Positions 9,653-61,620 of a stretch of 64,000 nucleotides of DNA are shown here, piece after piece. Below the pieces are notes generated by a model. The model was given only the letters and a program-made list of their open reading frames with translations. It did not search any database and was not told the DNA's origin. The DNA is taken from positions 9,788 through 73,787 of the IMG/VR virus record IMGVR_UViG_3300050500_000054, one strand, 5' to 3'. Source of the stretch: a virus. Position 1 is the stretch's first letter, and every line of letters starts with the position of its first letter. Made by a program: the position numbers and the translations under genes.

Positions 9653-11253
9653 TAACGTCTTCCAACTTCATGGAACGGAATTTCGTAGCCGTAGATGCTG
9701 ACACCTTGGTTGACGGTAGCTTCTTGGAAACGAAGTCTAACCATTGGGCCTACACCGAGTCGGCGTAGACGTTCACGACCTGATGTAAGAGCGTGTGAGA
9801 TTGCGGAACCAGCAGAACTGGTAAATCTACCTACCGTTGGAGTGACTGTAAGAGTTCCGCTTGCTTCTACTCGACTGAACATGCTCAGCATACCCCAGAA
9901 GTGTTCGATGTCTGGGTTGTTGGCGTGGTGGAACGGTCCGATTACATCCATATCGATAAGTGTAGATGTACCATCTCGGAACGTAGTTTGGTTGCCGATG
10001 TAGAGGACTCCGTTTGTTCCACCTAGAATAGTAGCTGGAAGTCCTGAGCTATCGTCGCAAGTCATTCCAGCACTTGGAGTGAATAGGTCCGTCTTGTGAG
10101 GGCCATACCAAGTCTTGGCTGTGAGGTTGTATGCTACCCAGCGATCTTCGTTGCTCGATCCAGCCGCAGCCAAGTGAAGCTCATATTGGTTACGAGATTC
10201 GTTATACTTAGCAAAGGCATTAGCAAATCGGGTGCGGTTGAAGTAGGTTCCAGTGTTGAACCACGGCTTTGTAGAATCTTCTGAGATGGATGTTACTGTG
10301 TTGGCCTTTAGTTGATAGACACCATCTGTGCTTAGGAAGTAGACTGCATCGTCGATAGTTACAATGCTATCAGGGGATACACAGCCCTGCTCACTTACCT
10401 GAGTGATAGATACATTCTCAGTTGATGAACCAAGAGAGATCAACCATGTTCCATTGTCACGGAACACAGCTAGTTGATTCTTCATTGGACCGAAGCCCAC
10501 AACTCCTGTAGCTGACTGGCCTACAGGATTGATGTTAAGGCGATGAGGCCATTGGTAAGTTGAGCCATCCTCGGTGAAGAAAATGACATCTTGTAGTCCG
10601 TGACCTTCAGTAGCACCCCAGAGACGATTACGCCATGCTACGATATTCTTCAGGCGTGGAACACCTTCGATGGTAGCGGGAGGGGATGCGAAAGATGAGG
10701 CTAGAAGGGTTAGAAGTTCCAGGCTTTCATCAGCGAGGTTATTAGTAACTGTAACACCTGCTGTATTTCCAGGGATGTCGATTAGGCGGAAGAAGTCTGA
10801 TCCTCCAGCCGCTGTTCGGTAGATGCGGCGGGCATCGATCTCATCCTCAGATACTGGAAGTGGTCCAATTGAGAGGTCGTCGTCCGCTAGGCCAACTGTT
10901 ACGCTAGTTGGGGATAGTGGTGATTCAGCTAGAACCTGTCCATCATCGTCTAGGACTAGGAAGCTTACTCGAACCATATAGTCGCCAGTTAGACCAGTTG
11001 ATGAGCCAGCTGCTAGAGCTGGAGGTTCTACAGGTGCTCTTGGAACGAGAACTCTTACGTTAGCTTCTGCGTCAATAGCGATATTACGTGATGGGGAATT
11101 TACCATCACTACCTGTTCATCTAGGATGGCAAATCGAGGCTTACGAGTTGCTGAGAGCGTAACTCCAGTTGGAAGTGTGAGTTGGGTCCCAACACCTGTA
11201 GATGGATCTACCTTATATAGATTTGTGCCAGATTGTGCTAGGTAAAATGCCAT
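9652..11253 (-). CDS. tail structural protein
   Basis: 533 aa; start/stop coupled (ATGA overlaps) to neighbours. Confidence 0.35.
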   Translation of the reverse strand: MAFYLAQSGTNLYKVDPSTGVGTQLTLPTGVTLSATRKPRFAILDEQVVMVNSPSRNIAIDAEANVRVLVPRAPVEPPALAAGSSTGLTGDYMVRVSFLVLDDDGQVLAESPLSPTSVTVGLADDDLSIGPLPVSEDEIDARRIYRTAAGGSDFFRLIDIPGNTAGVTVTNNLADESLELLTLLASSFASPPATIEGVPRLKNIVAWRNRLWGATEGHGLQDVIFFTEDGSTYQWPHRLNINPVGQSATGVVGFGPMKNQLAVFRDNGTWLISLGSSTENVSITQVSEQGCVSPDSIVTIDDAVYFLSTDGVYQLKANTVTSISEDSTKPWFNTGTYFNRTRFANAFAKYNESRNQYELHLAAAGSSNEDRWVAYNLTAKTWYGPHKTDLFTPSAGMTCDDSSGLPATILGGTNGVLYIGNQTTFRDGTSTLIDMDVIGPFHHANNPDIEHFWGMLSMFSRVEASGTLTVTPTVGRFTSSAGSAISHALTSGRERLRRLGVGPMVRLRFQEATVNQGVSIYGYEIPFHEVGRR

Positions 11254-31898: not shown

Positions 31899-31927
31899 AT
31901 CCTATCATAGACTTACGAGATTGTCAA
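31899..31927 (-). promoter_or_regulatory. sigma70-like promoter for the tRNA array (TTGACA-17nt-TAGGAT)
   Basis: minus-sense cTTGACAATctcgtaagtctatgaTAGGAT, about 270 nt upstream of the first tRNA (Pro). Confidence 0.55.
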
Positions 31928-31935
31928 GAACTATT

Positions 31936-32259
31936 TTACCCGAAGTGCCATTTTCCCTTAAACCAGACCCACAACTCGTGAACATAAGGGCGACTTTCGC
32001 CGTTGTGGTAGGGCTGGAACTTACCGAAAAGCTGCTTTACTCCGTTGGCGGTCTTGGTCCTCTTAATCTGGATGCACCGAACCTTGTCATCGCCTCGGAC
32101 GGCCATGAGATCCCATGGTCCGTGTGACCCAGCTGCTCTAATCACCGTGTAGCCTTCCTCCTCCAGGAGCTTCTTAGCTTTGTATTCGTAGGCGCGGCCG
32201 GTGATGTAGTTCTTGTTGGGCACGAAGAACAGTCTACCATAGATATCCCGGATTGTCAA
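31936..32259 (-). CDS. Holliday junction resolvase, archaeal Hjc-like
   Basis: 'GRAYEYKAKKLLEEEGYTVIRAAGSHGPWDLMAV' matches the Hjc catalytic core; listed start is a TTG inside the promoter -35 element, so the real start may be GTG at about 32223. Confidence 0.55.
   Translation of the reverse strand: MTIRDIYGRLFFVPNKNYITGRAYEYKAKKLLEEEGYTVIRAAGSHGPWDLMAVRGDDKVRCIQIKRTKTANGVKQLFGKFQPYHNGESRPYVHELWVWFKGKWHFG
32231..32259 (-). promoter_or_regulatory. sigma70-like promoter (TTGACA-17nt-TAGACT) for the Hjc gene
   Basis: same cTTGACAATc -35 box as the other copies; -10 TAGACT. Confidence 0.4.
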
Positions 32260-32342
32260 GTGTCCGTAATTTTACGGCCAGCTCGGAGTCAGGCCGGGTG
32301 GGGCAGTCAAGGCTCCCAAAATGACATAAAAGAGGCAAAATC

Positions 32343-32760
32343 CCGTGACCCAGTTGATTCTAAAGGACTTACGGGATCGGAGGGTCGATTTTGAGGGTCA
32401 AAAATGGCTGTAAGTTGTTGATTCTAAAGGCTGACCCAGGCTTTTGAGTAGTATAAAACCGCTAAATCCCTTGTTTTCAAGCATTTAGGGGCAAGTGGGT
32501 CGCGGGTCAAATTCCCTATATAAGAGTAATAGACCCACCTAGGCATCCAGGACACCCCAACCTGAGGGGTTTGGGGGTGTAGCCTGTTTGGAACATTGTA
32601 AAAGTGGGTCAGAGGTAAGTTGTTGATTCTAAACGAGTTAGGTTTGGTTATTGGAGGATTGGGTCAGGTGGGTCAAGTTGGGAGGCCCACTGTTTTGTTA
32701 GGAAAATGGTCATATTCCTCGTAAGTTGTTGGGTCATAAGGACTTATGCGATAGTCAAGC
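32343..32760 (+). repeat. iteron-like repeat block A: at least 3 copies of GTAAGTTGTTGATTCTAAAG-like 20-mer plus at least 4 GTGGGTCA boxes
   Basis: copies at about 32411, 32611, 32729 (GTAAGTTGTTG...) and a partial copy at 32352; GGGTCA/GTGGGTCA at about 32489, 32530 (rc), 32607, 32661; ORF-poor. Confidence 0.6.
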
Positions 32761-32789
32761 CCTGATTTCAAAATTTTTCTAGCGAGGAC

Positions 32790-33100
32790 CACCCCGGCCC
32801 GGTTGGCATGAGTTTTGAATCTGCCATCCCCCATCCCTGGGGAGGTCGGCATGGTCCTTGCCGAGGGAGAATAGAGGATTGGCATGGTTCTTGGCGAGGC
32901 CTCGCGGAACGCGGGCACGTTCTTTGTATGCGGGCGCGACCGGGCGGGTCGGAAAATCTGACAATCCGTGGTAAACCTTACAAAAGTCTCCCAAAGCGCG
33001 GATTATGAGTGTGCAAAAGCGGGCAAATACGTGCAAAACCGGGAAGGCACGGGCCTTGCGAGCGAGTGCGGTGCGGGCCGGAGTGCGCCACTACTGGCCC
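32790..33100 (+). other. GC-rich non-coding island with short direct repeats, possible ncRNA or foreign insert
   Basis: direct repeats ggcatggtccttgccgagg / ggcatggttcttggcgagg and gtgcaaaagcggg / gtgcaaaaccggg; composition distinct from flanks. Confidence 0.3.
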
Positions 33101-33223
33101 TTACTCAACCGATACGGGCACCTTAGCAGTATCGGCAGGCTCTTTGACAACAGGCGAAACGATCTGCCATGAAGTGCTACCATTGGGCAGAGCGTAAATC
33201 ACGTAGCACAAGGGGAAACTCAA

Positions 33224-33709
33224 ATGCCAAAAGTAGTCGAAGTCATCATCGGTGGTCAGACCATGAAGGTTTCCGAAGAAGTCGCAGCACAGATTGCGGC
33301 GCTTCAGGCGGAGAACCAGAAGCTGGCCCAGGTGGCGGCGGCGCGGACCCGAAAGGCCGGATTCAGCATCGCAACCAACGCGAAAGGCGCGATGCAGATT
33401 TACGGTGCTTTCGATTCGTGGGGCCGATACCCGATCACGGTCCATCCGGATCAGTGGGCTGTCATCAAAGCTCACAGTGCCGAGATCGACGCCTACATCG
33501 CCGACAACAGGGCCGATCTGGTGAAGATGGAGTCGATCATCGCGGACTGGAAAGCCAAGAATCCGCAGCGCGCAAAGACTGGCGCGGCACGGGCGGCAGC
33601 CCCAGTCATGAGCATCGCAGAACGGGCGCGGCAGGCGGCGGCAGCCACCATGCGGGAACGTGATGAGGCCGAGATCACGGAAGAATTGCACCGACAGGCA
33701 GAACGGTAA
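33224..33709 (+). CDS. hypothetical Ala/Arg-rich coiled-coil protein in GC-rich island
   Basis: 161 aa; SD AAGGGGA; GC about 60 percent versus about 50 percent genome background; hairpin cgcaaggt...accttgcg after stop. Confidence 0.45.
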   Translation: MPKVVEVIIGGQTMKVSEEVAAQIAALQAENQKLAQVAAARTRKAGFSIATNAKGAMQIYGAFDSWGRYPITVHPDQWAVIKAHSAEIDAYIADNRADLVKMESIIADWKAKNPQRAKTGAARAAAPVMSIAERARQAAAATMRERDEAEITEELHRQAER

Positions 33710-34122
33710 GCACTCAATCGCAGAGTGACGCAAGGTTCAGAACATCGGACCTTGCGGGAATGCGGCAGGCCGGGTCACAAGCCCCGGCCACGGACACCAA
33801 ACCGATTTTGGGCGGTAACGACGGGTGCTAGGATGGTCCGGCAAGGCCCCTAGCAGGCCCCAGGAGCCACGAACGGGGCACCGGCAAGGGGCAACTACCG
33901 GCCCCCGCGAAAGGCGAGCGAAAGTGGGGCCGCAAACGGGCCGGACGGGTAGCAGGGTTTAGAGCATGTTGAGTGCTGAGTAACAGACTGGACGAATGAG
34001 TTAGCAGACTGGACACTAATGAGACTACAGAGACGGACTAGAGTGCTCTGTAAGCCCACAAGCCAGATAGTTAGCCTGCTAGTCTGTTGCTGAGCACTTG
34101 AGCAAACTGAGGAGGAGCACAA

Positions 34123-36078: not shown

Positions 36079-36441
36079 GTGAAGCGCAGATTCATGTTCG
36101 AGACAACCAATCGGGAGGTGTTCGCAAAGGCCCTCGGATACATCGCTGAGCTGGCAAAGGTGTATGGCGAGGACGAAATGGACCTGACCATCGCGGGTGA
36201 GGTTCCTGCCGACCAGTCGAGGGCGAAGGTTCGGTATCGTGCCATCGCGGGCAACGATGCACTGAAGGCGCTGGGGAATCGCACGGTCATAGGCACGCTG
36301 TTTGCCCATCTACTCAGTGAGGGGCCTTGCACGGTGCCGGACCTGAGGACGAAGTTCAACTACACCGACAAGTCGGTGCAGTCGGGCCTCCAGAAGCTGA
36401 GGACGATGGCTCTGGTGGAGAGTGAGGAGATCCCGGCGTGA
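36079..36441 (+). CDS. winged-helix DNA-binding protein (putative transcriptional regulator)
   Basis: C-terminal 'TVPDLRTKFNYTDKSVQSGLQKLRTMALVE' wHTH-like segment. Confidence 0.35.
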   Translation: MKRRFMFETTNREVFAKALGYIAELAKVYGEDEMDLTIAGEVPADQSRAKVRYRAIAGNDALKALGNRTVIGTLFAHLLSEGPCTVPDLRTKFNYTDKSVQSGLQKLRTMALVESEEIPA

Positions 36442-42411: not shown

Positions 42412-42426
42412 TTAGCGAAGTTGCTA

Positions 42427-42499
42427 GGACAGGTAGCTCAGCGGTAGAGCGCCCAGCTTGAGAGCTGGGAGGTCGGTGGTCCGAATCCACCCTAGTCCT
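42427..42499 (+). tRNA. isolated plus-strand tRNA-like gene with an 8-nt anticodon loop (CUUGAGAG) and an A-A acceptor mismatch
   Basis: canonical D-arm TA-GCTC-AGCGGTA-GAGC, fully paired anticodon stem CCCAG/CTGGG enclosing 8 nt, T-arm GGTGG-TCCGAAT-CCACC, acceptor GGACAGG/CTAGTCC. Confidence 0.4.
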
Positions 42500-42619
42500 A
42501 GCAACAATGTTGGGGGGCAGCTTAACATTCCCAGCGAGGCACTGCACACCTCACAGTGTAGTAGCGGTCGTAGTGTGGAGTTGCCTCCCAACGCCATTTC
42601 CCAATTCGGAGAGGTTAGC

Positions 42620-43063: not shown

Positions 43064-43240
43064 ATGTTCGACAGAGACGAATTCGTGAAGGATGTCAACG
43101 ATTACCTCGAGGACAACTACGGTGAGGATCCCCTCGAGAAACACGAGGAAGAAGAAGCTGTAGAGTCAGCTCTAGAATCTGGCAACTACAGCATCAAGGA
43201 CATCGCTGAGCACATCCTCGACATCCGGTGGGAGATATGA
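43064..43240 (+). CDS. small acidic protein
   Basis: MFDRDEFVKDVNDYLEDNYGEDPLEKHEEEE...; internal Met of ORF 43010..43240. Confidence 0.3.
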   Translation: MFDRDEFVKDVNDYLEDNYGEDPLEKHEEEEAVESALESGNYSIKDIAEHILDIRWEI

Positions 43241-44220
43241 GAGACACAGTGCCTTCGATGCTCATTCTCAGTGGCCTCCCTGCTAGTGGCAAATCGACCT
43301 ATGCCAAGAAGTGGGTGGCTGAGGAGCCAGGCGGTCGCTATCGCCTGAACTATGACGACCTCCGTCGAGAGATGTATGGCCCAGAGTTTGTGTGGAACCG
43401 TCTCCAGGAGGATCTCATGAAGGTCGAAGCAGTCAAGAGGGTGACTGCTGCGATAAACCTCGGGCATGATGTTGTGATTGACAATTGCAACCTCACCCCG
43501 AGGGTTCGAGATCACTGGCGCAACATTGCCAACAACCTCAGCGTCACCAATGTTGAGGAGCATGAACTGGACGTGCCTGTCAGAGAGTGTGTTCAGCGTG
43601 ACGAGCTGAGAGGTGACAACCGTGTGGGGAGAGCTGTCATTGAGAGGATGGCACTGTTCAATGGGCACATTGACTGGAAGGATCCAGAACAGTATGCCCA
43701 GAACATCAAGTTCGTAGTCGTGGATATGGATGGCACCCTCGCCAGCTGTCAGCATCGGGTGAAGTATCTCGATAAGAACTGGTGCCTCGCATGTGACCGT
43801 GCGAGTGAGCCAAAGTTCATGTCAGACAAGTGTGCTTGGTGTGGGACTGGCAACCTCAGGGGGAAGAAAGACTACCGTGGGTTCTTCGCTGGAGTAGCAC
43901 AGGATCCTCCAATCCCGGAGATTGTGGATCTGGTCCGCCTCCTAAGCATGGAGCACTACATCCTCATCGTCAGCGGTCGTCCCACTAGCGATGCGGGTAT
44001 CAGCACTGAGGAGTGGCTGAAGACAAACAACATCTCTTACAAGCACCTCTTCATGCGTAACGGTGGGGATCATCGTGATGATTTCATCGTCAAGCAGGAG
44101 ATTTGCGACCTCCTCCCAAAGGATCGAATCGCGTTTGTCCTCGACGATAGGGATCAAGTTGTGAAGATGTGGAGGGACAATGGAATCAAGTGCTTGCAGG
44201 TGGCTGATGGAAACTTCTAA
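43228..44220 (+). CDS. pnk: polynucleotide 5'-kinase/3'-phosphatase (T4 Pnk-like bifunctional)
   Basis: N-terminal P-loop 'ILSGLPASGKST'; C-terminal HAD phosphatase motif I 'VVVDMDGTLA' and later 'LDDRD'. Confidence 0.7.
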   Translation: MGDMRDTVPSMLILSGLPASGKSTYAKKWVAEEPGGRYRLNYDDLRREMYGPEFVWNRLQEDLMKVEAVKRVTAAINLGHDVVIDNCNLTPRVRDHWRNIANNLSVTNVEEHELDVPVRECVQRDELRGDNRVGRAVIERMALFNGHIDWKDPEQYAQNIKFVVVDMDGTLASCQHRVKYLDKNWCLACDRASEPKFMSDKCAWCGTGNLRGKKDYRGFFAGVAQDPPIPEIVDLVRLLSMEHYILIVSGRPTSDAGISTEEWLKTNNISYKHLFMRNGGDHRDDFIVKQEICDLLPKDRIAFVLDDRDQVVKMWRDNGIKCLQVADGNF

Positions 44221-45029: not shown

Positions 45030-45944
45030 ATGAGTAAACCAACCCTCGCTGCCATCGTGGCACGGATGCAGGTTCCTGAGCTGACTGAAGGACACAAGGC
45101 AATCATCAATCGTGCCCTCAAGCAGTATGACACTGCTATCGTCCTCTTGGGAATCAGTGGTGCCCAACAGCCAACCGTAAACAACCCCTACTCGTTCGCT
45201 CAGAGGGTGTCTGTCATTCGGAGGCATGCACCTCACATCCACATCTACCCACTGCTGGACCACCCGAGCAATGAGCAGTGGACGAGGAACCTCGACAGAT
45301 TCCTCAGCCTGACGTTCCCTGGATACGAGGTATCTCTACTCTGTGGTCACAATAGTGGTGCTGAGAATGCCTACAAGGCACATGGAGGTAGATTCACGGT
45401 AGACGCATTCGCTGAGAACAGTGGGCAGCGAGGAACCGCAGTCCGTGAAAGCATCAGAGAGAACAACAGTGTGGACTTCCTCCGTGGTATGGCATATGCT
45501 CTGAACCAGCAATTCCACAACCCGTACCCCACTGTAGATATCGCTCTCATCGAGGGTGAAAGTGTGTGGATGGGGCGGAAGGCTGAGGATCCACACAATC
45601 TGTGGAGATTCCCTGGTGGGTTCGTAGAACCAGGCATGAGCCTCGAAGCCACTGTTCGTAAGGAGGCGTGGGAGGAACTTGGAGTGTCGAACCTGACTGA
45701 TCCAGTCTACCTCGGATCTACGATGATCGATGACTACCGCTACAAAGATTCTCCTGAGAGCATCCTCACCAGCATCTTCGCATGCAGTCAGATGAGTGGT
45801 CCTCGACCGAAGGCTGGAGACGACTTGGACGAAGCCCTTGCCATTCCGCTAGAGAACATCTTCGCTGACCCGAAGAGGTTCGTGATCTCAAACCACATCC
45901 CACTGGTCCATATCATCAAACAGAAAACGGGAGCCGCACTGTGA
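45030..45944 (+). CDS. bifunctional NMN adenylyltransferase / Nudix hydrolase (NadM-Nudix, NatV-like)
   Basis: N-terminal nucleotidyltransferase 'TEGHKAII' (HxGH-like); C-terminal Nudix box 'GGFVEPGMSLEATVRKEAWEELGV'. Confidence 0.65.
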   Translation: MSKPTLAAIVARMQVPELTEGHKAIINRALKQYDTAIVLLGISGAQQPTVNNPYSFAQRVSVIRRHAPHIHIYPLLDHPSNEQWTRNLDRFLSLTFPGYEVSLLCGHNSGAENAYKAHGGRFTVDAFAENSGQRGTAVRESIRENNSVDFLRGMAYALNQQFHNPYPTVDIALIEGESVWMGRKAEDPHNLWRFPGGFVEPGMSLEATVRKEAWEELGVSNLTDPVYLGSTMIDDYRYKDSPESILTSIFACSQMSGPRPKAGDDLDEALAIPLENIFADPKRFVISNHIPLVHIIKQKTGAAL

Positions 45945-47305
45945 CAAACCTCCTCCTGACCGATAGCTACAAGCACAGCCACGCAGAGCAGTATCCTCCT
46001 GGCACCAGCAAGGTCTACTCCTACTTCGAGAGTCGAGGTGGGAAGTATGACGAGACTGTGTTCTTCGGGCTGCAATATCTCCTCAAGAAATACCTCCAGG
46101 GAGCATTCGTCAAGCTCGATGACATCTTCGCTGCTGACAAGATGCTGTCCTCACACTTCGGGAAGAAGTTCGACAAAGCCAAGTGGCTGCACATCGTCGA
46201 GGCACACGCGGGCAGGCTCCCTGTAAGCATCCGTGCGCTGCCTGAGGGAACCGTGTGTGGAAACGGCAACGCGATGATGACGGTAGAGAATACCTGTCCT
46301 CAGTGCTACTGGGTGACGAACTGGATTGAAACACTCCTCGTCCAGACGTGGTATCCCACTACCGTAGCAACACAGTCCCGATACATCCGTAAGATGATCT
46401 TCGACTTCCTCCAGGCCAACGGCACGCCTGAGGGAATCGGGTTCAAACTCCACGACTTCGGCTTCCGTGGTGTGTCCAGTGTCGAGTCAGCTGGCCTGGG
46501 AGGTGCTGCCCATCTGGTGAACTTCTCAGGAACCGACACCTTGGCTGCCCTCTACATCGCCAGTGAATACTACGGTGAGGCATGTGCTGGGTTCAGCATC
46601 CCAGCATCCGAGCACTCTACCATCACAAGCTGGGGCAGGGAGCACGAGGTTGACGCCTTCCGCAACATGCTGGAGAAGTATCCAGAGGGCCTCGTTGCCT
46701 GCGTGAGTGACAGCTTCGACATCTTCAAGGCATGTGACGACCTGTGGGGAACGCAACTGAAGGATCGCATCCTCGCTCGTCCAGGCACTCTTGTCATCCG
46801 TCCTGACAGCGGTGATCCAATCTCCGTCATCATGACGATGCTGAGCATCCTCGGAGAACGGTTCGGGTATGAACTCAACAGCAAGGGATTCAAGTCCCTC
46901 GACCCGCATGTCCGCATCATCCAGGGTGATGGCGTGAATGCAGTCACCATCATGAACATCATCAGTGCCATGCACGACCAGGGCTGGTCGGCTGACAACA
47001 TCGCATTCGGGATGGGTGGAGCACTGTTGCAGGACCTCAACCGCGACACCAACAGGTTCGCATTCAAGTGCTCCTCGGTGACTGTCAACGGGGAGGAACG
47101 CGACGTGTGGAAGGATCCAACCACTGATGCTGGGAAGATCAGCAAGCGTGGGAGGTTGGTGGTTCTGCCTACGGCTCATGGGTTGGCGACATTCCGAGAG
47201 AATGCAGCGAACATCACAGACAACCAGTTGCATGAGGTGTTCCGCGATGGACGGTTGTTGGTGGATCAGAAGTTCTCCGACGTTCGAACGAGAGCGAGGG
47301 GCTGA
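45941..47305 (+). CDS. nadV: nicotinamide phosphoribosyltransferase (NAMPT/NadV)
   Basis: N-terminal 'TDSYKHSHAEQYP' and 'GFRGVSS', 'GTDT' motifs typical of NAMPT; 454 aa; ATGA-coupled to upstream NMNAT gene. Confidence 0.7.
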   Translation: MTNLLLTDSYKHSHAEQYPPGTSKVYSYFESRGGKYDETVFFGLQYLLKKYLQGAFVKLDDIFAADKMLSSHFGKKFDKAKWLHIVEAHAGRLPVSIRALPEGTVCGNGNAMMTVENTCPQCYWVTNWIETLLVQTWYPTTVATQSRYIRKMIFDFLQANGTPEGIGFKLHDFGFRGVSSVESAGLGGAAHLVNFSGTDTLAALYIASEYYGEACAGFSIPASEHSTITSWGREHEVDAFRNMLEKYPEGLVACVSDSFDIFKACDDLWGTQLKDRILARPGTLVIRPDSGDPISVIMTMLSILGERFGYELNSKGFKSLDPHVRIIQGDGVNAVTIMNIISAMHDQGWSADNIAFGMGGALLQDLNRDTNRFAFKCSSVTVNGEERDVWKDPTTDAGKISKRGRLVVLPTAHGLATFRENAANITDNQLHEVFRDGRLLVDQKFSDVRTRARG

Positions 47306-50003: not shown

Positions 50004-50525
50004 ATGGACCGCACAATCTCAATCATCGCTGGCCTCATCATCGCTGCCGCCGTAGTCAAGGGCTGCTCGTCGTCTACGCCTGCGGCTCCGACTCCTCCAT
50101 CCCAGCAAACCGCCGTGGATGCCGTCCCAGCACCTGAGCCGTTCTGCCTCTCCTTCGCTCCGAAGCTGGAGGAACCCAATGTCCAGCAGAGTCAGGCTGG
50201 CCCGAGAGTTGAACTGGAGTATTACCCGATCCTCAACACCGTCACTGGTAAGCTGATCTCCCGCTACGAGGTCCTCTTCCAGCGAATGAGTTTTCAGAAC
50301 GTCTGGGAAGATGTATCCATCCCATACGTCCAAGTTGAGGTCGATCCAAACAGAGACAAGCATTTCATCTCATGGCTGATTCGCAACGACCCTGACGGTG
50401 AGGGACGTGGTGGACCGAATGGCACCTACCGTGCTCTAGTTCGTGCTCACCTGGGTGAGGAATGCCACCCTGCTCGTCGTCTAACTGACTGGGCAACCTC
50501 AGAGACATTCTCGGTAAGCCAATGA
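50004..50525 (+). CDS. lipoprotein
   Basis: 'AAVVKGC' lipobox then Pro/Ala-rich linker. Confidence 0.35.
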   Translation: MDRTISIIAGLIIAAAVVKGCSSSTPAAPTPPSQQTAVDAVPAPEPFCLSFAPKLEEPNVQQSQAGPRVELEYYPILNTVTGKLISRYEVLFQRMSFQNVWEDVSIPYVQVEVDPNRDKHFISWLIRNDPDGEGRGGPNGTYRALVRAHLGEECHPARRLTDWATSETFSVSQ

Positions 50526-51571
50526 CAAGCCCATACGGAACACTACACCTCGTAGCCAAGAACGGAGAAGTCGTGACCAGTTGGCACAGCTATCCATCGA
50601 TCTACAACCTCGGCCACAAGGCTATTGACAAGCTCCTCGACCGCCCTGTTCTGGTAGAGGAGAAAGTCGATGGCAGCCAGTTCAGCTTCGGTTACTTCCC
50701 CGATGCAGAACCCGGCCTCGAACTGAAAGTGAAGTCAAAGGGAGCTATCATCCATGTGGACGCGCCTCCAGCAATGTTCCGCAAAGCTGTGGAAACGGTT
50801 AAGAGGATCGCCACAGAGGTGGGACTACGCAGCGGGTGGACATACCGTGGAGAGGTCCTGGCGAATCCACACCACAACACTCTCGCTTACGATCGTGCGC
50901 CCACTGGGAACATCATCATCTTCGACATCAACACTGGGGAAGAGGCATACCTGGATTACGATTCGAAGGCCGAGGAAGCAAAGCGCCTTGGTCTGGAAGT
51001 CGTCCCGCTCGTGTTTCGAGGTATCGTTCCAAGTATTGAAGCCTTTCGAGAACTGATCGACAAGCCCTCGATCCTTGGCGGTCAGAAGATGGAAGGTGTC
51101 GTGATCAAGCCAGAGGATTACCTCTACTTTGGTCTTGACAAGAAAGTCCTCATGGGCAAGTTCGTGAGTGAAAAGTTCCGTGAGGTCCACGGAGCAAGTT
51201 GGAGGGCAGCGAATCCGACCACTGGAGATATCATCCAGGTTCTCGGAGAACGCTACCGCACCCCTGCACGGTGGAACAAGGCTATTCAGCATCTCGACGA
51301 GGCTGGTAAGCTGGAATACTCCGTGCGGGACATTGGTAAGCTGATTGGTGAGATCGGTCCTGACATCGAGCGTGAGTGCAAGGATGAAATCATGGAAGAC
51401 CTCTATGCCTACGCTCGTAAGCACCTCATCCGTCACTGGACCAGAGGGTTCCCCGAGCACTACAAGGAACTCCTCCTGGAGCGTCAGTTCGAGAAGTATC
51501 AGGAACCCCCAGACATCGCACCTCCTGGGGTGGAAGTGTTTGAACAATTCCCGGAGGAACCCAAGTCATGA
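50522..51571 (+). CDS. RNA ligase (Rnl2/DRB0094-like nucleotidyltransferase)
   Basis: adenylylation motif I 'EEKVDGSQF' (KxDG), downstream 'WTYRGEVL', 'EGVVIK', 'KFVSEKFRE' fit ligase motifs III-V. Confidence 0.6.
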   Translation: MTSPYGTLHLVAKNGEVVTSWHSYPSIYNLGHKAIDKLLDRPVLVEEKVDGSQFSFGYFPDAEPGLELKVKSKGAIIHVDAPPAMFRKAVETVKRIATEVGLRSGWTYRGEVLANPHHNTLAYDRAPTGNIIIFDINTGEEAYLDYDSKAEEAKRLGLEVVPLVFRGIVPSIEAFRELIDKPSILGGQKMEGVVIKPEDYLYFGLDKKVLMGKFVSEKFREVHGASWRAANPTTGDIIQVLGERYRTPARWNKAIQHLDEAGKLEYSVRDIGKLIGEIGPDIERECKDEIMEDLYAYARKHLIRHWTRGFPEHYKELLLERQFEKYQEPPDIAPPGVEVFEQFPEEPKS

Positions 51572-60137: not shown

Positions 60138-60289
60138 AATGCCCCAGGATCGATTTTCTTTCCTCGCCTATGGGTCAGGCCGCCCTCGGGACGGCACGGC
60201 CCCTAGAGCGGGGGGCAAGGCTGGAGCGCCAAGCGGAAGCCGCAGGCTCCGCCTCCCTACGTTAGGGTGGGTTACTTACTCTTTATTAG

Positions 60290-60440
60290 TAGAATTGACC
60301 CACCCACTGCAATTTGAGGTAAACCCTTTGGAATCAGTGATTTACAGTGGGTCATGCGTTTTTTGTGAGAATCTGCCCTCGACCCTTTAGAATCAACGAC
60401 TTACGGTGGGTCATGGGGTGGGTCATTGGGGTTTTTGAGG
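60290..60440 (+). repeat. iteron-like repeat block B (inverted relative to block A): 2 copies of the 20-mer in reverse orientation plus 4 GTGGGTCA boxes
   Basis: 'ctttagaatcaacgacttac' and 'ctttggaatcagtgatttacag' are rc of the GTAAGT(T/C)GTTGATTCTAAAG repeat; cagtgggtca, cggtgggtcatggggtgggtca, and rc gcagtgggtgggtcaa. Confidence 0.6.
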
Positions 60441-60466
60441 TTTTTGGAACTTGACAATCTGGGAGG

Positions 60467-60770
60467 AATGTGCATGAGAATCGAAATTGCCATCACGATT
60501 CATCACGAGAGCGGGAAGGAGAACCTGAAGCAGATGAGGGATAAGTATCTAAACTTCAGGGACCATGTGGAGGACATGCAATTGGCGGGGTGGCTACCCC
60601 GAGGGACCATTGACTGGACCCTCAGGGCAAAAGGCGTGAGTGTGAATGTTACCCGACCTCCTAAGTCTGCTGAAACCATCGGGCCAGTTGTTCCTCCTGG
60701 CGATTCTCGACAGGGTGTTCTTCTACTCCCTTCGGGACGGCCAGACGATAGCCAGCCCTACGGAGTATAG
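60467..60770 (+). CDS. possible small protein convergent with and overlapping the helicase gene 3' end
   Basis: ATG preceded by GGAGGA; about 100 aa; overlaps the C-terminus of the minus-strand gene by about 110 nt, so the call is doubtful. Confidence 0.2.
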
Positions 60771-61620
60771 ACCTTGCAGCCTCAGGTGACTTCCCAATGA
60801 GAGGAGCCAGTGCTCTGGCTTTGGCCCTGTCTCCCACCAGGTCGTCATTGTTTAGAATAGAATCAATGGCTGCCCGGTATTCGTCAGGATCTGGCATCCA
60901 CAGGAGGGCATCGTCGCAATCCTGCCGGATCATCTTGATGCTTCCCTCTTCGATATTGCGTCCAGCGTAGTAGAGTCTAGACTTGGTTAGGCGCAAGATC
61001 GCATCCATCTCACCAACGACTGCTGTTGAGCCTCGGTGGTCAGCCATGATATCCTTATCCATGTCTGGAGAAGGTTTCTTATCGTGGCTAATGACTAGGA
61101 CTGCTGCCGGGTGACAGGCCGACACCAGATTCGTCATCACATTCGACATCACAGTTGAGGAATTCTCGTCCCCACTGTGTAGCTTTCGGATAGTGTCAAT
61201 AATTACCAGCACTGGCCGATGAGGCTGGATAATTGAGTGTAGGTAATGCACATGCCCTGGTTGGAGGATGTCAAATGGAAACTTCTCCAGAGTGGTCATG
61301 TCAGCTAGGAGGATCTTCTCATCCGGAAGCTTGAGGCCAAACTTCCTAAGAGCGTCGAACCTCAACGCCCACGTCGTTCCGGGCGTATCTAGCTGCAAAT
61401 AAAGGACTTTACCCGGCTGTCCGACTGGGAAGCCCATCCAATCCGTCCCCGTGGCAACGGCCTCGGCGAGCTGGATTGCCAGCGCCGACTTGCCAACTTT
61501 TGGAGGAGAATAAAGGAGTCCCTTCCCCGAGGCCGGAATCAAAGGCTCGATCAGCCAAGTTTCGGGTCCTCTTGGGAGGGTAAGGTAGGTAGAAACGGGA
61601 ATGAAACCAGGAAATGACAT
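60661..61620 (-). CDS. RecA-fold replicative helicase/loader (AAA_25, RepA-like) with C-terminal HTH
   Basis: Walker A 'SPPKVGKSALAIQLAEA', Walker B 'LVIIDTIRKL'; C-terminal 'GDRAKARALAPLIGKSPEAARSILRRAGY' HTH-like. Confidence 0.6.
   Translation of the reverse strand: MSFPGFIPVSTYLTLPRGPETWLIEPLIPASGKGLLYSPPKVGKSALAIQLAEAVATGTDWMGFPVGQPGKVLYLQLDTPGTTWALRFDALRKFGLKLPDEKILLADMTTLEKFPFDILQPGHVHYLHSIIQPHRPVLVIIDTIRKLHSGDENSSTVMSNVMTNLVSACHPAAVLVISHDKKPSPDMDKDIMADHRGSTAVVGEMDAILRLTKSRLYYAGRNIEEGSIKMIRQDCDDALLWMPDPDEYRAAIDSILNNDDLVGDRAKARALAPLIGKSPEAARSILRRAGYRLAVPKGVEEHPVENRQEEQLARWFQQT

Follow-up and report, generated by a model that had tools for sequence, protein, structure and literature searches.

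Two inverted repeat blocks in an uncultured phage of about 77 kb as candidate origin-like sites of its RepA-type helicase

The question raised by this locus is what two separate clusters of short repeats do in the genome of an uncultured phage of about 77 kb, whose sequence recurs in several assemblies of soil and rhizosphere type, including a contig of 76.8 kb. The stretch of DNA analysed (64,000 nt, positions 9,788 to 73,787 of IMG/VR record IMGVR_UViG_3300050500_000054, hereafter the window) has two inverted homologous non-coding blocks 28 kb apart, block A at 32.34–32.76 kb and block B at 60.26–60.43 kb. In the original prediction, 20-nt repeats in these blocks were taken for iterons of an initiator or for operators of a repressor, and short boxes between them for interleaved extras. 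According to our analysis of sequences, the blocks are probably inverted copies of an iteron-type, origin-like site at which the replicative helicase of the phage itself assembles, with bends of the kind made by integration host factor (IHF). The roles of the two repeat types appear to be reversed, as the element-specific repeats are the 8-mer boxes.

The repeats themselves are real. When checked against background, both types were far above chance and confined to the two blocks. The 20-mer, GTAAGTyGTTGATTCTAAAG, had three matches in the window at up to three mismatches (32410, plus strand, exact; 32615, plus strand, one mismatch; 60385, minus strand, one mismatch) versus none in 100 shuffled sequences. 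At up to four mismatches, sites at 32721 (plus strand) and 60326 (minus strand) join them, and all five copies are inside blocks A and B. A truncated copy is present in block A at 32346/32353. The exact 8-mer box GTGGGTCA occurs seven times in 64 kb, and six of these are in the blocks (32604, 32668, 60296 on the minus strand, 60347, 60406, and 60418). Its GGGTCA core is present 32 times in the window, with eight copies in 32300–32800 and five in 60150–60450, so that 13 of 32 fall in 1.25% of the sequence (0.8 kb). Counted with G/T variants (consensus GT-GGGTCA), there are ten boxes in block A and seven in block B. Among the boxes of block A, just two are exact GTGGGTCA and the others are one base off.

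The opposite orientation of the blocks was also borne out. Block A has its 20-mers on the plus strand and block B on the minus strand, and a shared core module, GGGTCAA-N6-CTATATAAGAG-N-GACCCAC, aligns between block A (plus strand) and the reverse complement of block B. In block A, this module (32495..32539, plus strand) consists of the boxes GTGGGTCG and CGGGTCA, 22 nt of AT-rich DNA with CCCTATATAAGAG, and the inverted box AGACCCAC; it is present in six relatives as well. Its mirror image in block B (60267..60303, minus strand) consists of GTGGGTTA, 21 nt of AT-rich DNA (cttactctttattagtagaat), and TGACCCAC. In each block, one inverted box pair surrounds the AT-rich core of 21–22 bp, two boxes are left of the core in block A, and most additional boxes are on one side of the core only. 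The block A module is proposed to be a melting and helicase-loading site or, alternatively, a box-flanked -10 promoter.

The candidate reader of the boxes is encoded next to block B. The seven boxes of block B span 60172–60425, and the last one ends 235 nt from the stop codon of a minus-strand gene (60661..61620) for a hexameric helicase of the AAA_25 family, so the predicted position of block B at the 3' end of this gene is correct. The helicase is similar to RSF1010 RepA both by sequence (1g8y, E 5e-12) and by fold (top matches in Foldseek), and at least 263 homologues were found at E <= 1e-20. It has an extra C-terminal three-helix bundle of the helix-turn-helix (HTH) type, coded at about 60739–60875 and modelled with a pLDDT of 91, with helices at residues 249–256, 264–275, and 279–294. 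The third helix is KSPEAARSILRR here and KSEEAAMSILRR in the closest relatives. In 60 homologues, the residue aligned to Arg283 is Met in 45 and Arg in 5.

Helicase loci were gathered from contig look-ups, IMG/VR, and metagenomes, and the DNA was read at the 3' end of the helicase gene. In all six loci with Arg at position 283 (the window, L223, L227, L273, L268, and L282), the box contains GGTCA, in the forms GTGGGTCA, CCGGTCAA, and TTGGTCAA. In all ten loci with Met, Ile, Leu, or Thr (L218, L219, L220, L225, L226, L244, L262, L263, L260, and L279), it contains TGTCA. Two loci with Tyr (L231 and L237) have TGAATCA or GTGATAA, and the one locus with an unrelated third helix, that is, a different HTH (L233), has 13 copies of TGGCCAA. 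The covarying base is the one 5' of GTCA, being G with Arg and T with Met, Ile, Leu, or Thr; the Fisher probability of the split of 6/0 versus 0/10 is about 1e-4 with phylogeny ignored. This phage is of the Arg type, while its closest helicase homologues (62–71% identity) are all of the Met type, and because it is nested among them, its Arg is regarded as an independent switch. Contacts of arginine with guanine and of hydrophobic side chains with the thymine methyl group are chemically sensible. Residue R283 is a candidate base-reading residue, and the boxes are apparently read by the C-terminal HTH of the helicase itself, one of the binders named in the original prediction, for which the covariation gives comparative support. 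Another candidate reader, the winged HTH protein encoded at 36079–36441, has orthologues in the relatives that are too divergent for a covariation comparison. Locus L268, of the Arg type and with three copies of GTGTCA, was considered as a counter-example and rejected, as its actual block uses CCGGTCAA boxes and the GTGTCA copies are far downstream.

The arrangement is not limited to this phage. Six relatives (L213–L217 and L001), found via their Hjc-like protein with 61–78% identity, have the same intergenic architecture, with GTGTGTCA/TGACACAC as the box versus GTGGGTCA/TGACCCAC in this phage. Analogues of block B with a mirrored core module were recognized in the same genomes (L218, L219, and L220). 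The gene order between the blocks is identical in all relatives. Across the helicase family, box clusters are situated at or just past the helicase stop codon, around an AT-rich palindromic core. The same placement 3' of the helicase gene was seen in the distant homologues L223, L225, L227, L231, L233, L237, L244, L263, and L268, and in the distant loci the AT-rich near-palindromic core is between inverted boxes, usually together with an IHF-like site. Adjacency to the helicase gene, as originally claimed, is thus exact in this phage and in some distant relatives, but in the closest relatives block B is 1–3.4 kb downstream.

The remaining elements of the blocks are as follows. Block A starts with an inverted box GTGACCCA fused to the truncated IHF-like site A1 (GTTGATTCTAAAGGACTTAC; 32346..32372, plus strand). 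Two weak boxes, GGGTCG and GGGTCA (32382..32400, plus strand), the exact 20-mer A2 (GTAAGTTGTTGATTCTAAAG; 32410..32429, plus strand), and an inverted box CTGACCCA (32431..32438, minus strand) are located before the core module. A G+C-rich hairpin is 3' of the core (32548..32588, plus strand; -22.6 kcal/mol, z -1.65), and a hairpin of different sequence is in the same place in each relative (z -0.4 to -2.35). It is followed by a box GTGGGTCA (32604..32611, plus strand), the 20-mer A3 with one mismatch (32615..32634, plus strand), and a triplet of TTGGGTCA, GTGGGTCA, and a degenerate inverted GCCCAC (32659..32693, plus strand), in the order of two forward boxes, N, and an inverted box as in the relatives. 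The last element is the degenerate IHF-like site A4 (32721..32746, plus strand), with four mismatches, a central GGGTCA box, and ACTTAT as the right arm. In block B, the core module is followed by the 20-mer B1 with four mismatches (60326..60345, minus strand), a box GTGGGTCA (60347..60354, plus strand), the 20-mer B2, which is the exact C variant GTAAGTCGTTGATTCTAAAG (60385..60404, minus strand), and two boxes GTGGGTCA 12 nt apart (60406..60425, plus strand).

If the boxes are the specific sites, the role of the 20-mers has to be explained. An exact-pattern scan with 19 specified bases found the 20-mer in 86 viral contigs with wholly unrelated flanks and in at least 120 stretches of species-representative genomes, where about four were expected by chance in 596 Gb. 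Among the genome matches listed, 72 of 80 belong to Acidobacteriota, frequently with many copies per chromosome. The information content, computed for 117 non-redundant contexts, reaches zero at no more than 3 nt from the 20-mer; because it falls to zero within three bases, the 20-mer is considered to be selected as a unit and not inherited with its flanks. In viral contigs, it is situated among contig-specific repeats such as ATGTTACG, CCGGAACA, CGTTGACA, and a 22-mer in L074. It is thus found, as an accessory site would be, between the specific-protein sites of many unrelated elements. Degenerate secondary copies retain GTAAGTyGTTGA and the A/T-rich half.

The sequence and position of the 20-mer point to a bending protein. 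It carries the Craig–Nash IHF consensus YAANNNNTTGATW (in A2 as TAA-GTTG-TTGATT), and 14 of its 20 positions are identical to the H1 site of lambda attP (CTAAGTAGTTGATTCATAGT). The reverse complement, CTTTAGAATCAACAACTTAC, holds AATCAACAACTTA with CTTTAG 5' of it and agrees with the IHF consensus WATCAANNNNTTR plus an A/T-rich 5' segment. Among the genome matches listed, the 20-mer is at most 10 nt from a tRNA gene in 23 cases, with its AAAG end toward the tRNA every time, and on its other side there are two or three element-specific direct repeats and then a tyrosine integrase, CI-like repressors, or an Xis-like HTH protein. Read directly, lambda attP has the core, an A-tract, TATCAATTTGTTG (H'), the P' arm sites, and the 3' end of int, and acidobacterial elements have the 20-mer at the position and in the orientation of H' (core, A/T-rich segment, WATCAANNNNTTR, arm repeats, int). 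Compared with the IHF sites of Escherichia coli, the 20-mer is far more uniform between independent elements, at all of its 20 positions. Given the IHF consensus, the match to lambda H1, the att-site position, and the unrelated carriers, the 20-mer is most likely a site for an IHF-type architectural protein of the host.

These findings bear directly on the literal form of the original prediction, in which the 20-mers are phage-specific iterons or operators for a phage initiator or repressor. It agrees with the 20-mers being repeated and confined to two blocks in this window. Iterons are, however, specific to a replicon and its cognate initiator, and the identical 20-mer is present in more than 100 unrelated phage, prophage, insertion sequence-like, and chromosomal contexts that have their own element-specific repeats. 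Close relatives differ freely in the number of copies, from zero to two with none in L213 and L216, and in their orientation. Together with the IHF consensus and the H'-like att position, this makes the 20-mers scarcely credible as phage-specific sites.

Several other roles of the 20-mer were considered and rejected. As a sigma70 promoter, it has no hexamer pair at a workable spacing and is just 1–8 nt from mature tRNA 5' ends. For a promoter of the T7/SP6 type, no phage RNA polymerase was found among the proteins scanned. A tRNA-like anticodon arm or RNA hairpin was rejected for inconsistent stem pairing, and a general palindrome because the right arm ACTTAC is present in a subset only and flank information is near zero. 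A 31-nt motif query against cultured phages gave mostly coding noise, with a few non-coding matches in Sphaerotilus, Burkholderia, and Tunturiibacter phages, and a full-text literature search for the motif sequence gave nothing relevant.

Two further arrangements of the 20-mer were observed in Vicinamibacterales. In the first, two copies of GGCTGGCAGTAC, N12, the 20-mer, N3, and tRNA-Arg are kept in this order in different species, and an integrase is encoded on the side of the repeats (e.g., L092, L111, L113, L126, L133, and L137). There the 20-mer is at the 5' end of the tRNA, and elsewhere it is beside 5' halves of tRNA-Ser (L088–L207, GTDB genomes). Integration may thus substitute the 5' part of a tRNA gene together with its promoter, which would be atypical. 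The second is an element of about 150 nt with at least nine copies per chromosome (L089, L093, L095, L097, L102, and many others), in which the 20-mer precedes a TTGACG-N17-CATAAT promoter by about 10 nt. This element probably represents the terminus of an insertion sequence or of a different repeated mobile element.

Because most of the listed genome matches are in Acidobacteriota, we infer, indirectly, that the host belongs to this phylum. How indirect this assignment is can be seen from one related helicase that is located in a metagenome-assembled genome of Prosthecobacter.

The proposed mechanism can now be put together. The iterons would be the 8-bp boxes GTGGGTCA, bound by the three-helix HTH at the C terminus of the helicase; judging by the covariation, Arg283 would contact the G that differs from the GTGTGTCA of the relatives. 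The opposed box pair that flanks the AT-rich near-palindromic core (CCCTATATAAGAG) may mark the site of melting and helicase entry. The other boxes are within about 150 bp of the core, and a host protein of the IHF type on the 20-mers, two to four per block, would fold these flanking boxes back onto it, as the consensus and the context suggest. IHF folds DNA likewise at the origins of pSC101 and R6K and in lambda attP. Block B would be the family-conserved origin or helicase loading site 3' of the helicase gene. Block A, the second inverted copy beside the Hjc-like gene, could be a second origin or a partner, similar to crr of P4, that loops to block B. The two blocks may cooperate.

The assignment of block B as origin and block A as its second copy follows from the match of the layout to Rep of Staphylococcus pathogenicity islands (SaPIs) and from the likeness to the alpha protein of P4. 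In SaPI Rep, a C-terminal domain reads 6–12 iterons of 5–6 nt placed directly downstream of the rep open reading frame (ORF); the origin has an AT-rich centre with iterons opposed on its two sides, and specificity differs between related elements (PMC9371898). The phage system resembles Rep of SaPIs and phage-inducible chromosomal islands in that one protein would be both helicase and origin reader via its C-terminal domain, here as predicted from covariation. It also has at least six short sites directly downstream of the helicase ORF (here seven) and relative-specific boxes. Its AT-rich centre is between one pair of opposed sites in each block, as against at least two iterons per side in the SaPI type. 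It differs in its RecA-fold helicase of the RepA/DnaB type (AAA_25, similar to superfamily 4, SF4), which is not an AAA+ Rep, and in its three-helix HTH as the reader domain, for which a winged helix was not demonstrated. Further differences are the host IHF-type sites among the boxes, the two inverted blocks 28 kb apart, and the boxes that are asymmetric around the core. P4 alpha is reportedly a primase-helicase with a C-terminal origin-binding domain that binds octamers TGTTCACC. The ori and crr of P4 are said to be two separate octamer clusters several kb (4.5) apart, both needed, for which looping was proposed. P4 alpha is unlike the present protein, being a superfamily 3 (SF3) helicase fused to a primase, its sites are 4.5 kb apart versus 28 kb here, and IHF sites are not known to have a role there. 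The pSC101 and R6K gamma origins are similar in having arrays of initiator sites beside an AT-rich region and a bending IHF site, and RSF1010 RepA in having the same helicase fold. In these three plasmids, however, a separate initiator (RepA, pi, and RepC, respectively) reads iterons of 17–22 bp, while here the sites have 8 bp and the helicase itself is apparently the reader; RSF1010 RepA is without a DNA-reading domain of its own.

A number of observations weigh against this mechanism. The covariation is a correlation among genomes that lack phylogenetic independence. When the C-terminal domain of the helicase was compared alone with known folds, there was no significant match (best E 1.6). 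Seven Arg-type loci (L224 and L228 among them), the His-type L221, and several loci with an unalignable HTH or on short contigs had no box cluster within the available sequence; these loci are uninformative because the sequence in reach is limited. In the closest relatives, small genes separate block B from the helicase gene, and GC skew has no inflection at block A or block B. One box per side directly flanks the core and further boxes are one-sided, unlike in the symmetric SaPI ori. The core is short (21–22 bp) and has a good -10 hexamer (TATAAG/TATAAT), relative to which boxes occupy -36 to -22 and +3 to +9, so that the core with its flanking boxes also fits an operator or activator site. 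Block A is furthermore upstream of sigma54-type promoters, in the classical geometry of enhancer, IHF site, and promoter. Acidobacteria were reported to have just an IHF-beta-like protein with specificity not known (10.1101/2024.06.24.600358, preprint). For this reason, IHF as the binder of the 20-mer is presumed rather than established, and the presumed acidobacterial hosts differ from the host of lambda in being reported without IHF-alpha. Even so, an origin beside the helicase gene, perhaps paired, is the best-supported reading of the original prediction, somewhat more probable than otherwise, with the correction that the 20-mers are not the specific sites.

The -10-like core leads to the question of transcription. 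Near-identical promoters of the family cTTGACAATC-N11-12-TGGTAGGAT (extended -10) were identified at 826, 31927, 32259, and 61746 on the minus strand and at 60451 and 62273 on the plus strand, as well as at 64166 on the plus strand beyond the window (L208); they mark the Hjc/tRNA unit, the helicase, and the replication genes. The outward promoter of the Hjc-like gene and the tRNA array, of the sigma70 early type, is at 32231..32259 (minus strand; TTGACAATC-N-TGGTAGACT), with a second copy at 31899–31927. Block A is free of ORFs and lies beside this gene and its TTGACA promoters, as originally described. The promoter-like element noted at 60451 by block B does contain TTGACAATC; this outward sigma70-type site (60451..60481, plus strand) has a weak -10, and stronger equivalents follow block B in L218 and L220. 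Given an outward TTGACAATC early promoter by each block and the -10-like core, transcription may activate the proposed origin or be regulated by the same protein.

Transcription control could also be the whole function. The boxes would then be operators or activator sites of a phage regulator, possibly the helicase HTH acting as a transcription factor. At each end of the 33–60 kb block, this regulator would select either the outward TTGACAATC early promoters or an inward -10 promoter flanked by boxes (CCCTATATAAG), with IHF-type bends aiding loops for repression or activation. Block A, like block B, is between divergent promoter-like elements, its boxes overlap the -10-like AT-rich core, and the conserved TATAAG/TATAAT, whose neighbouring boxes cover about -36 to -22 and +3 to +9, is reminiscent of T4 MotA-type sites or operators. 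The hairpin after the core in every relative and the lack of any TTGACAATC promoter of this family inside the 33–60 kb auxiliary block agree with such control. On the other hand, the box clusters of the family are at the 3' end of the helicase gene and not at its promoter, and simple autoregulation is disfavoured for this reason. The core is palindromic and its inverted boxes are about 28 bp apart from centre to centre, an unusual spacing for a dimeric regulator. The inward promoter of block B would run antisense into the end of a convergent operon, and no repressor or activator gene was identified among the proteins scanned or next to either block. The covariation with the helicase domain would also be poorly explained. 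Transcription control in place of an origin is therefore rated unlikely; the two functions may coexist.

A more particular form of regulation is suggested by three tandem, partly degenerate sigma54-type -24/-12 motifs to the right of block A (32803..32896, plus strand), namely TTGGCATGAGTTTTGA at 32803, CGGCATGGTCCTTGC at 32847, and TTGGCATGGTTCTTGG at 32881, with a fourth at 33045; they are directed into the early genes. Block A could be a sigma54 enhancer, in which the boxes are upstream activating sequences of an enhancer-binding protein and the 20-mer at 32721 is an IHF bend toward these promoters. Tandem TTGGCACG-N4-TTGCW motifs, matching at 11–12 of 12 positions and directed toward the early genes, are in the homologous place in all six relatives; about 0.02 motifs are expected per intergenic region, and these relatives (L213–L217 and L001) carry two to four strong copies. 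The boxes are 130–200 nt upstream with an IHF-like site in between. The copies in the window are, however, degenerate, two of them being without the -12 GC, and GG-N10-GC is kept at 32847 and 33045 only. No Sigma54_activat protein was found in the window, in the flanking loci, or in the precomputed Pfam lists of the loci, although an activator of the host is possible. There is no sigma54 motif near block B, where the boxes are the same, and the boxes covary with the helicase HTH. An enhancer role of block A is accordingly considered very unlikely. The presence of sigma54 promoters seems in itself unusual for a lytic-looking phage. Between the box array and the first of these promoters, a conserved A-tract (AAAATTTTyC(C)CTCGCAG) with a GGGACCCC-like, G+C-rich palindrome after it was observed at 32769–32785 and in the same position in L001, L213, L215, L216, and L217; the A-tract may be a bend or an unwinding element.

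A combination of inverted multi-protein sites and IHF sites is likewise characteristic of attP, P1 parS, lambda cosB, and transposon ends, and the 20-mer is demonstrably in att sites of other elements. The blocks could serve another DNA transaction. They might be used in inversion or recombination at specific sites, in partition, like the parS of P1 with its central IHF site, or as recognition sites for packaging. The 64-kb window and the 7.6 kb beyond it were searched, and neither an integrase or recombinase nor ParA/ParB or a transposase was detected; the attP reading of the window was rejected on the lack of an integrase in this sequence. The terminase genes are 4.5 kb from block A, behind the tRNA array. 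All relatives share one gene order between the blocks, which gives no indication that the segment was inverted. Functions of this kind are regarded as highly improbable, and a helicase assembly site is preferred for both blocks.

The genome around the blocks is arranged as follows. Structural genes, among them a P22-type portal and a T4-type large terminase, occupy 1–28 kb of the window on the minus strand, followed by 23 tRNA genes (28.9–31.6 kb) and the small gene for the Hjc-like nuclease (31936–32259), both on the minus strand. Right of it, there is a gap of about 1 kb without ORFs (32260–33223), inside which block A is located. Plus-strand auxiliary genes follow over 27 kb and code for PNKP, an RNA ligase, NAMPT, a NUDIX protein, an HNH endonuclease, a Band_7 protein, and an Acb5 homologue. 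The AAA_25 helicase gene is a single minus-strand gene next to plus-strand replication genes, and DNA polymerase A, endonuclease VII, and a UDG-fusion protein are encoded past the end of the window. No sequence similar to the DNA of block A was found in 50,697 cultured phage records, and an Rfam scan of both blocks gave nothing at the gathering threshold or at E <= 5.

Some features of this genome and of its relatives were recorded separately. A type-P5 twister ribozyme (Rfam RF02684, 54.8 bits versus a gathering score of 37.6) was matched at 33719–33786 on the plus strand, directly after the first early ORF (33224–33709) in the operon that starts at block A. A tRNA-like gene (42426–42500, plus strand; Rfam tRNA 51.6 bits), to which ARAGORN assigned a four-base anticodon (tgag), is isolated in the plus-strand auxiliary region, distant from the 23-tRNA array. 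The auxiliary genes include a PNKP and RNA ligase pair (tRNA repair), NAMPT with NUDIX (NAD salvage), a phiEco32-like COOH-NH2 ligase, and the Acb5 homologue; the coordinates recorded for this set are 43228–44220, 50522–51571, and 45030–47305 of the window and 12449–12667 of L208. Beside the 23-tRNA array, this gene set looks like a counter-defence toolkit. The large terminase of L215 (8297–10639) has 780 aa versus about 485–500 aa in other relatives and a faint LAGLIDADG match, which suggests an intein or a homing-endonuclease insertion.

A wider proposal, offered tentatively as possible rather than probable, is that in a large uncultured family of phages of about 70–79 kb, the RecA-fold RepA-type (SF4) helicase is its own origin-recognition protein, with the C-terminal HTH reading 8-bp iterons by a one-residue/one-base code (Arg/G, Met/Ile/Leu/Thr/T, and Tyr/A). 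This phage would have two inverted origins around its auxiliary block, and assembly would need an IHF-like host factor with a high-information site of about 22 bp that is present in more than 100 unrelated mobile elements of Acidobacteriota and that would reveal the specificity of the acidobacterial IHF-beta-like protein. Self-loading helicases with an origin-reading domain are known mainly from the AAA+ and SF3 classes, such as SaPI Rep, P4 alpha, papillomavirus E1, and SV40 T antigen; a self-loading helicase of the RepA/DnaB type, if true, would extend this principle to the bacterial SF4 fold, and the helicase family would offer a natural specificity series of Arg/G, Met/T, and Tyr/A. It would be an easy misreading to take the longest and most conspicuous repeat for the specific one, as it is the generic host-factor site. 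The 20-mer is a candidate recognition sequence of the IHF-like protein of Acidobacteriota, could mark att sites and origins of mobile elements in this poorly studied phylum, and may be a host-prediction signal for phages from soil and groundwater.

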